DNA of 32,624 nucleotides from Candidatus Poseidoniales archaeon. GTDB lineage: Archaea; Thermoplasmatota; Poseidoniia; MGIII; CG-Epi1. The notes beneath the pieces were generated by a model. The model saw only the letters and a program-made list of their open reading frames with translations. It was not told the DNA's origin and ran no database searches. Where the stretch lies: positions 1 through 32,624 of the forward strand of contig JBJLCC010000037.1 of NCBI GenBank assembly GCA_045567855.1. Direction: 5' to 3'. Shown here piece after piece: positions 16,208-21,347 of this stretch (position 1 is the first letter of the stretch; each line of letters starts with the position of its first letter). Both the position numbers and the translations under genes were made by a program.

Positions 16208-17740
16208 TTAGTTTATAAAATCTAGGATCCAATCAAATGTTGTCTGTTCTCCAGGTCCAAGATAGAACATTGTCATTAGAACAGTTATTGCCATCAAAAT
16301 TTGGTTGCTTAGAATTTCTTCGTATTTTCCAACAGCCAATTTGATTCCTACATAGGAAATTACTCCCCATGCGATACCGTCTGCAATCGAGTATGCGAAT
16401 GGCATCAAAGCAATAGTTAAGAAGGCTGGAATTGCGATTTCTATATCATCCCATTTGATGTCACCTACTCCACGCATCATCATTGCTCCAATTACCATTA
16501 GTGCAGGTGCTGTTGCGTAAGCTGGTATTGCTATAAAGACGTCAGAGAAGAAGACACCTAGTAAGAATAGGAATCCTACAACTACTGCAGTTAATCCAGT
16601 CTTACCACCTTCTTCTATTCCAGAAGCTGACTCGATATATGTTGTTACAGTACTTGTACCCATGACCGCACCGATTGTTGTTCCAGCTGCATCAGCCATA
16701 AAGGCTTCATCAGCATTTTCAAGTTCGTCATCATCATTTACTTTTCCTGCCATTCTTCCGACTCCATATAGAGTACCTGCAGTATCGAAAATATCAACAA
16801 AGAAGAAAGCAATTACTACCATTAGGAAAGATCCCCATCCTCCGTACGTAGAACCTTCAATTGGATCGCCTGCACTTCCTAAAGCACCGAACACAGCGCC
16901 TACTGTATCTGAAGGATTATCTGGTGATGAGAAAATTTCAGAAGGTGCATCAGAGCCAGGTACAATTGCCCATCCAATTATACTAACACCTAATATTCCA
17001 ATCATAATAGCGCCTTTTTGCTGTCTAGCCATTAAAGCACCCATTGCTATAAGTCCGATTAAAGCCCAGAATTGACCTGATTCATGAGTCCAGGCTCCTG
17101 CATTTGTAAAGTCAATTAAAGTTGCAGGATTGTCTACAATCCATCCGGCATTTTGCATTCCTATGATCGTAAGGAATAGTCCAATACCAGCCATTGTTGC
17201 AATTTTCAAATCTTTCGGAATTGCGTTAATCATTGCAGTTCGAGCGCCAGCGTAGGAAAGTCCAACAAATAGTAGACCTTCTACGAAAACTGCTGCAAGT
17301 GCAATGTCCCAGGGTACCCCCATTCCAAAACATACAGTGTACAAAAAGTATGCATTGAGCCCCATTCCTGGAGCAAGAGCAAAAGGCAAGTTTGCCCAAA
17401 GTCCCATTATAATACATGCAATAAAAGAAGCTACAGCTGTAGCAACTAATGCATCATTGAATGGGATTCCCGTTGCGAAACCTTCAAACTCAGGAGTTGA
17501 GGGATCATCTAAAAATGTTATGTCTCCTCCTGAAAGCATTAAAGGATTCACGATGAGGATATAAGCCATCGTAAGGAATGTTGTCACTCCTGCACGAATC
17601 TCACCCTCTACGGAACTACCGGCTTTACTGATACCAAAATAGTTATCAATTTGCCCCATAATCCCCTCGCTTGGAGTAGATGCTGGAGCTTCTGATACGT
17701 TGTTTTCGGTACCACTATTTTCTGTGTCGTCGTCACTCAT
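16208..17740 (-). CDS. NCS2/AzgA-family purine (adenine/guanine/hypoxanthine) permease (start taken at ATG 17740, preceded by SD-like AGGTG)
   Basis: EIRAGVTTFLTMAYIL.VNP, NLPFALAPGMGLNAYF, FDTAGT, GTSTVTTYIESASGIEEGGKTGLTA; many TM helices. Confidence 0.93.
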   Translation of the reverse strand: MSDDDTENSGTENNVSEAPASTPSEGIMGQIDNYFGISKAGSSVEGEIRAGVTTFLTMAYILIVNPLMLSGGDITFLDDPSTPEFEGFATGIPFNDALVATAVASFIACIIMGLWANLPFALAPGMGLNAYFLYTVCFGMGVPWDIALAAVFVEGLLFVGLSYAGARTAMINAIPKDLKIATMAGIGLFLTIIGMQNAGWIVDNPATLIDFTNAGAWTHESGQFWALIGLIAMGALMARQQKGAIMIGILGVSIIGWAIVPGSDAPSEIFSSPDNPSDTVGAVFGALGSAGDPIEGSTYGGWGSFLMVVIAFFFVDIFDTAGTLYGVGRMAGKVNDDDELENADEAFMADAAGTTIGAVMGTSTVTTYIESASGIEEGGKTGLTAVVVGFLFLLGVFFSDVFIAIPAYATAPALMVIGAMMMRGVGDIKWDDIEIAIPAFLTIALMPFAYSIADGIAWGVISYVGIKLAVGKYEEILSNQILMAITVLMTMFYLGPGEQTTFDWILDFIN

Positions 17741-17828
17741 AGGTTTACACCTAAACAACATTAAGTGAGGATTTCTTTTTAAATGTACCGGATGTTTCAG
17801 GAAATAAAACTTAGCCTTCTACACGGAT

Positions 17829-18671
17829 TTAAAGAGTCTCATAATCTGACTGTTTGAAGACTGAAACTTTGTTATTTTCGGCCCAAAGTTTCCATTTTCG
17901 ATATTCACTTTTTTTCATACCTTTTTTATGAAAGTAAATACCGTTAGATTTTCCGGCTTCAAGAGCTCTTATGAGCATATTTTCGGTTAAATGAGGTATT
18001 CCATAGTTTGCTACCATGTGGCCAAAAGATACCTTGTGAGATAGTGCAGCTTCAGTAAACCTTGGCGTATAGTGTCCACCACCAAAACCTAGAACGTTTA
18101 TGCCTTCTTTGATTTTAAATTCGAGAAGGGATTTAATTAGTACTCTTGCAGGTATCTCATCCTCCCATTGCTTTTCTGTAGATCCAATTTCTAGAAATAT
18201 AGTAGGAGTTTCTAGCAAAGGCCCGTGATGAGTGGCTTCAAAGCATACATCATATCCATTAAGCTGATTCTTCTTTATTTCTCTTAAGAGAGAGCTCATA
18301 ATATCAGAGGAAGCTGGCGTAACTTCTCCCTTAATTCCACCGTAATCTGCATCCCCCCAATTTCCGATAGGATGAACTGTTAAGCTAGGTTTTCCACTTG
18401 CAGCTTTATGCCTTGATAAAAAAATTATATTACTTATTTTCAAACTATTTTTTCTTTCAAATGCTTCATCAATTTTTTCTGCGTGAATATGTATCTTATT
18501 TATACTAATTAAATGAGTTCCTTCAACACAAAAGGGACCATGCGTTTTAGTAATTTTCCACATATCATTTCCATCAAATATTCCACATTTTTCCCATGGT
18601 GACATTTCCAATAATCTATCTCTTAAATTTATTGATGCTGAATCAGCTTTTGATGCAATAATTAGATTCAT
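17829..18671 (-). CDS. dtdA: Archaeal D-aminoacyl-tRNA deacylase (DTD2)
   Basis: [32 protein letters not shown] motifs. Confidence 0.92.
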
Positions 18672-20314
18672 AACCCTTCAACAAGTCCAACTTTTACATT
18701 TCTTTCTTTGGCTACTTGTTTTGCTCTCGAATATCCTGCATCTACATGCCTCATAACACCAGTACCAGGATCTGTTGTTAAAACTCTGCTAAGTCTCTCA
18801 TCGGCTTCCTTGGTTCCATCCGCAACGACTACCATTCCTGAGTGAAGTGAGTACCCCATTCCAACGCCACCACCGTGATGAAAGCTAACCCATGAAGCTC
18901 CTGATGCTGTATTCAGTAGGGCATTGAGTATTGGCCAATCGGCGACGGCGTCACTTCCGTCCTTCATGTCTTCAGTTTCTCTGTTAGGTGAAGCTACAGA
19001 TCCAGAATCAAGGTGATCTCTACCAATAACCAATGGAGCTTTTACTCTTCCAGTTTTTACCAATTCATTAAATGCAAGACCAGCCTTTTTTCTCTCTCCG
19101 TACCCAAGCCAGCAAATTCTTGCAGGTAGTCCCTGAAAACTAATTCTCTTTTGTGCCATATTTATCCATTTGGCAAGTGCTTTGTCTTCAGGAAATAATT
19201 CTAGCATAATCTTATCAGTTTCCAAGATGTCATTTGGGTCTCCGGATAAAGCTGCCCACCTGAATGGTCCTTTTCCTTCACAAAATAAAGGCCTAATATA
19301 TGCAGGGACAAATCCGGGGAAGTCAAATGCATTTTCGACTCCAGCCTCCTTAGCTCTTTCCCTTAAATTATTTCCGTAGTCAAAAGTGTATGAACCTCTA
19401 TCTTTCAATGTGAGCATGTGCTTAACATGCGTTCCCATACTTTCATAGCTTAGTGAAATGTATTTTTTCGGGTCCTCAATTCGTAACTTGTCTGCGTCTG
19501 AATTTGTTAGTTCATGTGGAATATATCCTATAAGTGGGTCGTGCGCAGAGGTCTGATCAGTCAACAAATCAGGAGTCACATTTCTTTCTATAAGTTTCGC
19601 TAACAAATCAATGATATTGGCTTTAACTGCGATTGATTTAGCTATATTATTTTCTTTCCATTTTAACGCAGTGTCTATTGCATAGTCAATATTATCAGTC
19701 ATTTCGTCACAATATTTTGTGTCCAATCGTTTTTGAATTCTTTCTTCATCCATTTCAGCAGCTAGAAAAGTACCTCCGTTCATAGTTGCAGCCAATGGTT
19801 GTGCACCACCCATGCCACCTAGTCCTCCTGTAACAACAAGTTTCCCTTCTAAAGTTCCATTGAAGTGTTGCCTAGCAGCTTCGGCAAATGTTTCAAAAGT
19901 TCCTTGTAGAATACCTTGTGAGCCAATGTAAATCCAAGATCCTGCAGTCATTTGCCCATACATCATTAGCCCTTCTTTTTCTAATTTATCGAAATGCTCC
20001 CAATTCGCCCAATTACCTACCAAGTTCGAATTTGCAATTAAAACTCGAGGTGCATCAGAATGTGTTTTAAAAATACCGACAGGTTTTCCACTTTGAACAA
20101 GCAAAGTTTCATCATTTTCCAAATCTTGAAGGGATTTAACAATTGCATTGTAACACTCAATATTTCGCGCAGCTTTTCCCCTACCTCCATAAACTATCAA
20201 ATCTTCGGGTCTTTCAGCAACTTCAGGATCTAAATTATTCATTAACATTCTAAGGGCAGCCTCTTGTAGCCAGCCTTTGCAACTAATTTCAGTCCCGTGT
20301 GGAGCTTTTACCAT
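18668..20314 (-). CDS. hutU: Urocanate hydratase
   Basis: [56 protein letters not shown]. Confidence 0.98.
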
Positions 20315-20389
20315 AACATATATTGTAACACCCTCTAAATTAAATATATTTCTACGAATATTTTAAAAAAACCCGGTTAGATTACAGAT

Positions 20390-20449
20390 AGCTGCTCCCG
20401 GCGGGCCCCCTCCCACCTCCCAACCTGTCGGTTGAGCGGCAACATTTTT
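20390..20449 (+). ncRNA. Candidate small structured RNA: GC-rich hairpin with C-rich loop
   Basis: GCUGCUC/GAGCGGC and CCGGCGGG/CCUGUCGG stems (15 bp, 3 G-U pairs, UU bulge), loop CCCCCUCCCACCUCCCAA. 38 of 50 nt G+C over 20391-20440. Upstream CGAATA-TTTTAAA (20355-20367), downstream T5. Confidence 0.5.
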
Positions 20450-20472
20450 AAATTCAATTTTAATTGGAACAT

Positions 20473-20616
20473 ATGATAAATCACAGAACGTATACAAATT
20501 TCATACGTTGCTCATGCGGATTTATAGGTGAATCAATCGAGGCGAGGCAACATAGAGAATGTCCTCAATGCCATTCTGTAGTTGAGGCATGCTGTGAAGG
20601 AAATAATTGTAATTAA
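20473..20616 (+). CDS. Small Cys-rich putative metal-binding protein (47 aa; below the ORF-track cutoff)
   Basis: Manual translation MINHRTYTNFIRCSCGFIGESIEARQHRECPQCHSVVEACCEGNNCN*. CxCG, CPxC and CC motifs; TATA-like TTTTAAA at 20446-20452; stop overlaps the sdhB stop. Confidence 0.65.
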   Translation: MINHRTYTNFIRCSCGFIGESIEARQHRECPQCHSVVEACCEGNNCN

Positions 20617-21347
20617 TTGGTTTTTCCAGTTAATTTTCTCCAAATCCATTTTAGAGGGTCGTAGTACTCGTCTGCAACTCTTTCCTTCATAGGTATTATT
20701 GCATTGTCAGTTATAGCAATATTTTCAGGACAGACTTCAGTACAACATTTGGTTATATTACACAATCCTATTCCATTATCATTCTTTATGGTTTCTAAAC
20801 GATTCCCTTGGTCTAATGGGTGCATTTCCAGCATTGCATTCCGCATCAAAAAACGAGGTCCTGCATATTCAGATTTCATATCGCTATCTCTTAAAACGTG
20901 GCAAACGTCTTGACAAAGGAAACATTCGATGCATTTTCTGAACTCTTGAACTCTATCTACGTCTTCCTGCAGCATTCTTGGATCGTCTGTATCTGGGTGT
21001 TGGTAGGGTAAAATTTTCTTGTTAACTTCATAGTTCCAAGAGACATCAGACACTAAGTCTTTAACTACAGGAAAGGCTTTCATTGGTTTAATAACTAAAG
21101 GTTCAGAAGGATCATAATCTGACATCCGAGTCATACACATAAGACTTGGAACTCCATTAACTTCAGCAGAACATGAACCACATTTTCCAGCTTTACAGTT
21201 CCATCTTACAGCTAAATCAGGTGCGTCATTAGCTTGAATCTCGTGAATTGCGTCAAGAACTACCATTCCAGGTCCACTCTCCATTTCAAATTCATGCATG
21301 AAGTAATCTTCTTTTTCACCCCTTTGAATAATTATTTTTCTCTTCAT
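20613..21347 (-). CDS. sdhB: Succinate dehydrogenase/fumarate reductase iron-sulfur subunit
   Basis: CKAGKCGSC...C, CIECFLCQDVC and CNITKCCTEVCP cluster motifs; SD GGAGG; ATGA overlap with sdhA. Confidence 0.95.
   Translation of the reverse strand: MKRKIIIQRGEKEDYFMHEFEMESGPGMVVLDAIHEIQANDAPDLAVRWNCKAGKCGSCSAEVNGVPSLMCMTRMSDYDPSEPLVIKPMKAFPVVKDLVSDVSWNYEVNKKILPYQHPDTDDPRMLQEDVDRVQEFRKCIECFLCQDVCHVLRDSDMKSEYAGPRFLMRNAMLEMHPLDQGNRLETIKNDNGIGLCNITKCCTEVCPENIAITDNAIIPMKERVADEYYDPLKWIWRKLTGKTN

Follow-up and report, generated by a model that had tools for sequence, protein, structure and literature searches.

A conserved hairpin beside hutU in planktonic Euryarchaeota as a candidate small RNA gene with an anti-Shine-Dalgarno-like loop

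We describe herein an element on the plus strand of a contig from a Candidatus Poseidoniales archaeon (32,624 nucleotides, all of which were analysed and are hereafter called the window) that is likely to be an independent small RNA gene. Comparison with relatives suggests that it is a previously uncatalogued, lineage-restricted archaeal small RNA, probably with a regulatory role. A sequence-only reading of the window had already proposed a stand-alone small RNA on this strand, and the proposal is borne out by a promoter-like box at the right distance, a step in conservation, a T-run, G-U pairs that suit the plus strand only, a single copy and the lack of an Rfam family. The mode of action is a more tentative matter. 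The whole explanation, that is, a stand-alone small RNA gene at 20390-20449 with masking of Shine-Dalgarno (SD) sequences as its most likely action, is given a little less than an even chance, and SD masking as a mechanism has at best that standing. Transcription of the element, the ends of its RNA, the pairing with mRNA and the ensuing repression are what we infer from the features collected in Table 1.

Table 1. Features of the element and of its surroundings (positions in the window)
Feature	Position	Strand	Basis or remark
BRE-like CGAATA	20355-20360	+	Part of a 20-nt conserved block, 20355-20374
TATA-like box TTTTAAAA	20361-20368	+	At -30 to -23 of G20391; putative promoter role
Predicted small RNA, ~55-60 nt	20390-20449	+	Predicted start to T-run; covariance-model match, conservation
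Hairpin 5' arm (GCUGCUC + CCGGCGGG)	20391-20405	+	Fold; pairing in alignment
18-nt C-rich loop CCCCCUCCCACCUCCCAA, core CUCCCACCUC	20406-20423	+	Core in 35/35 sequences; 16S 3' end GAUCACCUCCU
Hairpin 3' arm (CCUGUCGG, UU bulge, GAGCGGC)	20424-20440	+	Fold; pairing in alignment
Unpaired AACA tail and T5 run	20441-20449	+	Likely archaeal oligo-T termination signal; putative terminator role
hutU (urocanase), divergent neighbour	18668-20314	-	Pfam; synteny
47-aa Cys-rich micro-ORF, independent gene outside the RNA	20473-20616	+	tblastn in relatives

The element is an outlier in base composition. A recount of 20391-20440 agrees with the earlier claim of 38 G+C in 50 positions, which makes it the richest 50-mer of a window whose overall G+C content is 37.5%. 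Across the 973-kb genome (a MAG of 0.97 Mb, 68% complete, with 36.5% G+C), at least 36 G+C in 50 positions are reached by six loci, namely two tRNA genes, three low-complexity coding repeats and the hairpin element. The three other G+C-richest spots of the genome, at ~42530-42700 of contig C38, ~13650-13720 of C39 and ~4750-4870 of C45, are all coding and comprise APPQPVAPPPAAA tandem repeats, an RGG-rich stretch and a Gly/Cys-rich C-terminus.

Folding of a 66-nt piece of the plus strand gave a minimum free energy (MFE) structure that reproduces exactly the two stems, the UU bulge and the 18-nt loop described earlier: GCUGCUC pairs with GAGCGGC and, across the bulge, CCGGCGGG with CCUGUCGG, leaving CCCCCUCCCACCUCCCAA unpaired. 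The energy is -24.0 kcal/mol against -16.6 ± 2.7 for shuffled sequences (z = -2.69; 4 of 200 shuffles equal or better), and the MFE structure has an ensemble frequency of 0.76. This statistic alone is modest; its weight comes from the comparison with relatives. Among 35 model-aligned sequences, 31 of them distinct, standard pairs occupy 99.6% of the 465 stem cells. Ten of the 15 pairs are invariant, and in four only one partner varies (G-U to G-C, C-G to U-G). Pair 18-44, which closes the loop, is G-C in 21 sequences, G-U in six and A-U in two (one per genus-type), with two non-pairs. The sequence-only reading had looked to orthologous spacers for both conservation and covariation; the former is strong, with an identity of 0.93 within the genus, and the latter is thin, with one compensatory pair and shuffle controls not exceeded (38/500 by covariation score; 371/500), in an alignment that was fitted to the covariance model itself. 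Controls with slid partners were 26-66% paired, a drop to be expected of a structure derived from the same sequences. What appears more telling than either covariation or slid partners is the strand asymmetry of the G-U pairs. By arithmetic from the alignment, 94 G-U cells would become A-C mismatches in an RNA of the minus strand, which would be ~80% paired, and likewise in a DNA cruciform, and every sequence would carry three to four such mismatches in the conserved hairpin. The idea that G-U pairs favour a plus-strand RNA can thus be extended from the window to the whole alignment, all G-U pairs of which fit the plus strand only. Several relatives differ by a 7-nt indel in the loop, equal to one CCUCCCA unit, and a protein-coding reading is thereby excluded on either strand.

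A covariance model (R1), built from 22 sequences, matches 20388-20449 at 93 bits. R1 recovered the element from 18 of the 31 genomes of genus g1 and from all nine of its sister genus g2, with one copy per positive genome, and had no match in 110 genomes from elsewhere in the class (0/2 in g3, 0/2 in f2, 0/41 in f3 and 0/65 in f4). One genome, G023, has two matches, which are halves of one element split between contigs by a break. Such breaks exactly within the hairpin were seen at the end of C65 and the start of C16 in G023, and at the start of C173 in G005; the internal CCUCCCA repeat or strain variation is their probable cause, and they may explain some of the apparent absences in fragmented MAGs. 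In the genome of the window (G000) the element is single-copy, with no hairpin paralogue displaying the same motifs, and the one copy in each positive genome argues against a MITE or a genome-wide repeat, the latter of which the sequence-only reading had named as a finding that would undo its proposal. When the hutU-sdhB spacer was compared by BLASTN with 60 relatives, the segment alignable into the second genus was query 77-135, which is the element. Two pattern scans reached further. Seven further copies were confirmed by the covariance model among 80 loci listed from the metagenome scan, and in the scan of genome contigs the model kept 6 of 15 loci tested among the 80 matches listed, all of them archaeal; both scans were loose, and the matches listed were mostly chance ones in G+C-rich bacteria, so that a true environmental distribution is not to be read from them.

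The conservation profile looks like that of a gene. In the 18 g1 sequences, mean pairwise identity is 0.85 over the BRE/TATA block (20355-20374), falls to 0.55 in the 16-nt spacer (20375-20390), rises to 0.93 over 20391-20444 with the indel included, and drops to 0.43 beyond the T-run. Between g1 and g2, identity is 0.69 for the element and ~0.3 for its flanks. The step at 20390/20391 is what a transcription start at this point would be expected to leave.

One flank of the element is constant and the other is variable. Wherever an element locus extends far enough on the hutU side (27 of 27), hutU lies divergently ~75 nt from the 5' end of the element; the exceptions in synteny are G013, in which the contig with the element is too short and hutU is on another contig, and the second fragment of G023. 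The other side holds the 47-aa micro-ORF and sdhB in the window and in many relatives, sdhB directly in G018, G031, G017 and G026 (22-56 nt to the convergent sdhB stop), and an unrelated gene in three g2 genomes (G034, G036 and G032). From this pattern, the element is linked to the hutU promoter region. It has been lost in a subclade of g1 (G030, G014, G019, G028 and G004), and hence is dispensable in part of the genus. G030 and G004 have a hutU-sdhB spacer without the element, and hutU abuts sdhB in G019 and G028. In G004, the hairpin and part of its promoter seem to have been cleanly deleted from the spacer. In G019 and G028 (loci L191 and L192) ~15 nt separate the hutU start from the sdhB stop; with no spacer left, hutU would be co-transcribed with sdhAB there. 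The hutU frame of G014 (locus L190) has one in-frame TAA at about codon 18, which could reflect a pseudogene, a sequencing error or a strain variant. In the window, hutU is followed on its own strand (16208-20314) by an archaeal-type D-aminoacyl-tRNA deacylase (PF04414) and a xanthine/uracil-family permease, with no other hut genes; these neighbours place urocanase outside a classical hut operon here.

Both the CGAATA/TTTTAAA string at 20355-20367 and the T5 run at 20445-20449, which had been pointed out earlier, are present in the sequence. tRNA genes of the same genome have a TTTAAA-type box at about -32 to -25 of the mature 5' end, and the spacing of TTTTAAAA relative to G20391 matches these promoters. 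Part of the region is found again elsewhere: the 17-nt string TTTCTACGAATATTTT..., identical to 20348-20364 of the window, is repeated at ~7080-7130 of contig C46 in G000 (minus strand), beside a tRNA-Ala gene. The repeated string looks like a reused BRE/TATA promoter cassette. The single further occurrence of CGAATATTTT in the genome is at this place on C46, where the ATG of a gene for a signal-peptide protein follows 34 nt later, and this position supports a plus-oriented promoter of the same type with a start at ~20388-20391. The same 18-mer was seen at a second locus in G025, G011 and G001. At the other end, the GCAAC tail is nearly invariant, with AACA, AACU, AACC or AAU across homologues, and a run of three to six T lies 3' of GCAAC in nearly all homologues, G008 being without one. 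Archaeal RNA polymerase terminates at oligo-T.

Assembled contigs from four RNA-library runs were compared with the locus, and as contigs they carry no information on transcription, on strand, on transcript ends or on whether a single transcript is represented. In X4, 20162-20418 and 20389-20705 are covered at a depth of 3-8, including the promoter spacer and the 5' end of hutU; the two contigs share 30 nt (k-1) between 20389 and 20418, so that their ends there are graph branch points rather than RNA ends. X1 and X3 cover 20525-20781 only, and X7 has nothing. For both hutU and the micro-ORF, an apparent TATA-like box stands 25-35 nt ahead of the ATG, so that their mRNAs may have short leaders or none.

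The element was compared with known classes of RNA. No Rfam 15 family matched the window at its gathering score; the best sub-threshold matches over 20250-20700 had E values of 1.6-8.7 and were on the minus strand, and the only snoRNA-like one (E 2.8) is on that strand and outside the element. ARAGORN found no tRNA or tmRNA gene in the whole window. H/ACA guide RNAs have an ACA 3' of the hairpin, an internal pseudouridylation pocket and a K-turn or K-loop. This class was rejected on the grounds that the ACA of the tail is not conserved (AACA/AACU/AACC/AAU) and that the stem has only a 2-nt bulge. A C/D box sRNA was set aside in view of the absence of C (RUGAUGA) and D (CUGA) boxes from 20388-20449, a terminator of an upstream plus-strand gene because there is no such gene, and an origin or att site on anatomy. 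A G-quadruplex or i-motif (on the minus and plus DNA strands, respectively) was rejected as well, since the four G3 tracts seen in g1 are not kept in g2 and in G062-type loops.

Several regulatory RNAs resemble the element in part. Two of these, sRNA41 and sRNA154 of Methanosarcina mazei, are reportedly longer and form several hairpins. As far as they are described in PMC5867862, both mask ribosome-binding sites (RBSs), sRNA154 with its loop 2. From the same description, they resemble the element in being archaeal and intergenic, in carrying an anti-RBS in a hairpin loop and in having their own promoter, which is predicted here; repression by RBS masking, notably of internal operon cistrons, is a further likeness that is only proposed for the element (PMC5867862). 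They differ from it in coming from methanogens and in that their targets and their role in nitrogen regulation are experimentally supported, and the comparison is by description only. In bacteria, RoxS/RsaE and the cuckoo RNAs (CcsR, of Alphaproteobacteria) are said to pair with SD regions through C-rich unpaired motifs in hairpin loops. RoxS/RsaE of Bacillota control mRNAs of central metabolism, according to the portion of PMC5419742 consulted, and the element sits near sdhAB. Unlike these bacterial RNAs, the element is a single hairpin with one loop that holds an exact copy of the 16S anti-SD core instead of a CCCC run; membership in RoxS/RsaE was rejected on the lack of an Rfam match and on a host that is archaeal, not a member of Bacillota. 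Tan1, characterized by metatranscriptomic mapping of transcription start sites (TSSs), is described in PMC5069720 as an abundant 229-nt noncoding RNA of Marine Group II (Thalassoarchaea) with a complex structure. It is, like the element, a noncoding RNA of marine planktonic Euryarchaeota, and differs in being a complex 229-nt molecule as opposed to a 60-nt hairpin. Nothing like the latter appears in the text of that marine mdRNA-seq study as available to us, the supplementary TSS tables of which may bear on transcription (PMC5069720). A search of the literature found nothing comparable for the abundant uncultured planktonic Euryarchaeota.

The most distinctive part of the element is its loop, in which the two copies of CCUCCC and the one of CACCUCC claimed earlier were confirmed. 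The core CUCCCACCUC is unpaired in 35/35 sequences, and the CCUCCCA unit is present two or three times. Around the core, the loop reads CCCCC...CCAA in g1 and CAAC/UU...CCG or CAG in g2. GGAUCACCUCCU is the 3' end of every one of seven full-length 16S genes from the genus; this confirms that CACCUCC, as had been proposed, is the anti-SD core of 16S rRNA. CACCUC is shared with the 16S 3' end by the loops of all sequences, and CACCUCC by most. CACCUC(C) lies in the unpaired loop of both the MFE and the centroid fold, as an exposed anti-RBS of the sRNA41/sRNA154 type does. The likeness to the organism's own 16S 3' end nevertheless has limits: the identity amounts to only 6-7 nt, the 10-nt core CUCCCACCUC extends past the anti-SD, and the element is outside the rRNA operon.

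SD sites are used by a minority of genes in this genome. Across 681 ORF starts taken at the first ATG, SD 5-mers peak at -14 to -9, with 70 motif starts against ~2 per position elsewhere; usage was read from this positional profile, a naive test being uninformative on a background inflated by internal in-frame starts. As for the SD motifs that the sequence-only reading had assigned within the window, those before the listed starts of sdhB (AAGGAGGC) and sucD (GTAGGAGGG) are there, and no GGGTG or AGGTG was found upstream of the sdhA and permease starts.

We therefore prefer, at the strength given at the outset, the following course of events. Transcription would be initiated at ~20388-20391 from a BRE/TATA pair at 20355-20368 that is arranged back to back with the promoter of hutU, and would stop at the oligo-T run at 20445-20449. 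The product would be an RNA of ~55-60 nt that consists of a single hairpin, G+C-rich, 15 bp long and interrupted by a UU bulge, and of a short AAC(A)U-rich tail. The hairpin would hold a C-rich loop of 18-25 nt single-stranded, and the core of this loop would present a repeat of the organism's own 16S anti-SD core. Because of that repeat, pairing with SD regions is the most likely action: the loop may pair with the G-rich SD regions (GGAGGUG/GGGAGG) of the minority of mRNAs that are SD-led, mostly internal cistrons, and the pairing would then occlude binding of the 30S subunit and lower translation of the paired mRNAs.

Searches for targets were made from several directions. Loop duplexes of -12 kcal/mol or lower numbered 81 with translation initiation regions (-35 to +12 of 681 ORFs) and 79 with controls taken from inside genes, so that the former were no better, and contiguous pairing with the loop reached at most 8 nt in any such region. 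Of the exact 10-12-mer complements of the loop in G000, one was SD-like and preceded a short ORF on C40; the others fell at coding or antisense sites. Throughout 43 genomes of the family, the complement of the 10-mer core was at or below the frequency of its reversed control, and the recurrent ones (20 sites inspected) are mid-CDS and encode ...EVG.... Complementarity between the loop and 16S rRNA was 8 nt at most, and sdhB has an unchanged SD whether or not a genome carries the element. By itself, a 7-nt anti-SD mimic would confer little target specificity, and a generic mimic of 6-8 nt would need high abundance, as a global competitor, or the help of a protein. No Lsm/SmAP gene (PF01423) was found in G000, a genome that is 68% complete.

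These results bear on the other ways in which the element may work. An RNA may be made that acts via a protein without pairing to mRNA, its stem and C-rich loop serving as a binding or sequestering site, for example for a factor that recognizes the 16S 3' end or poly-C, or the RNA being a component of a small RNP. The failure of the target searches to reveal an mRNA preference would be accounted for in this manner, as would the 10 of 15 pairs that are invariant across two genera, the nearly invariant unpaired GCAAC tail, and a loop of two versus three repeat units, as found in multivalent protein-binding sites. Nevertheless, a simple hairpin constraint also predicts invariant G-C stems, and the locus (hutU, the Cys-rich microprotein, which is not always present, and sdhB) offers no candidate protein; we regard such a protein partner as unlikely, though worth bearing in mind. 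Rather improbable is a purely cis role in the control of hutU, by a promoter-associated transcript or a structured DNA or RNA that acts through competition, as a roadblock or as a site for a shared regulator, with no target in trans. The step in conservation is against it, as it is the transcribed hairpin that is conserved and not the DNA between the promoters (0.93 vs 0.55), and the sequence changes preserve RNA pairing for just one of the strands, a restriction that would not apply to a DNA site. On the other hand, the element is found divergently ~75 nt upstream of hutU in both genera, even in the three g2 genomes with an unrelated gene on the far side; the two A/T boxes stand back to back ~12 nt apart; and some genomes have hutU without the element, with the spacer deleted or hutU abutting sdhB. 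As the element is tied so strictly to the hutU promoter, a role in cis or in co-regulation retains some likelihood. A long shot is a strongly expressed anti-SD decoy, made from a tRNA-like promoter, that would compete with the 30S subunit for all SD sites and so balance the translation of SD-led (mostly internal-cistron) and leaderless mRNAs, its output perhaps being coupled to the hutU promoter. Were this so, the RNA would not regulate specific targets but would switch a streamlined planktonic archaeon between its two modes of initiation in a global, sequence-generic way, and its output might tie the switch to amino-acid catabolism via the divergent hutU promoter.

Two further possibilities would remove the element from the list of independent plus-strand RNAs. 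The sequence-only reading had offered the 5' leader of the downstream 47-aa micro-ORF as an alternative. The ORF does start 24 nt past the T-run in the window and in many relatives, and one RNA-library contig spans 20389-20705. Contigs, however, cannot demonstrate a single transcript; between the element and the ATG there are the T-run and a TATA-like TTTTTAAAT; and a leader should always accompany its ORF, an expectation that is contradicted by the presence/absence patterns. G018, G031, G017 and G026 keep the element with 22-56 nt to the sdhB stop and no room for the ORF, G014 has the ORF without the element, and the downstream gene is a different one in three g2 genomes. A leader is accordingly very doubtful. 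Searched by tblastn, the micro-ORF was found at 16 of 29 element loci, with 63-98% identity across g1 and ~71% in some g2 genomes, and it has been gained and lost independently of the hairpin. Its product (CxC...CPxC...CC...C) is zinc-ribbon-like, with no Pfam match, and the TATA-like TTTTTAAAT ~24 nt before its ATG suggests a leaderless mRNA. The second possibility is that the element works on the minus strand. There, with sdhB before it and hutU after it, it could terminate the sdhAB transcript or form a 3' structure of it, or could belong to a long hutU leader. That strand has a T7 run at 20363-20369 and folds at -26.3 kcal/mol; yet the structure is a different one and less exceptional (z = -1.77), the conserved hairpin would carry three to four A-C mismatches there in every sequence, 22 nt separate the T7 run from the hairpin, and the element is kept where sdhB is not adjacent. 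A minus-strand function thus seems highly improbable.

An independent plus-strand small RNA, with SD masking as its most likely action, is the reading that we carry forward. To our knowledge, archaeal riboregulation has been documented only in a handful of cultured methanogens, haloarchaea and Sulfolobales. A single-copy, near-invariant hairpin with an anti-SD loop and a predicted promoter would be a simple entry to post-transcriptional control in planktonic Euryarchaeota, and would bear on how archaea weigh SD-led against leaderless initiation.
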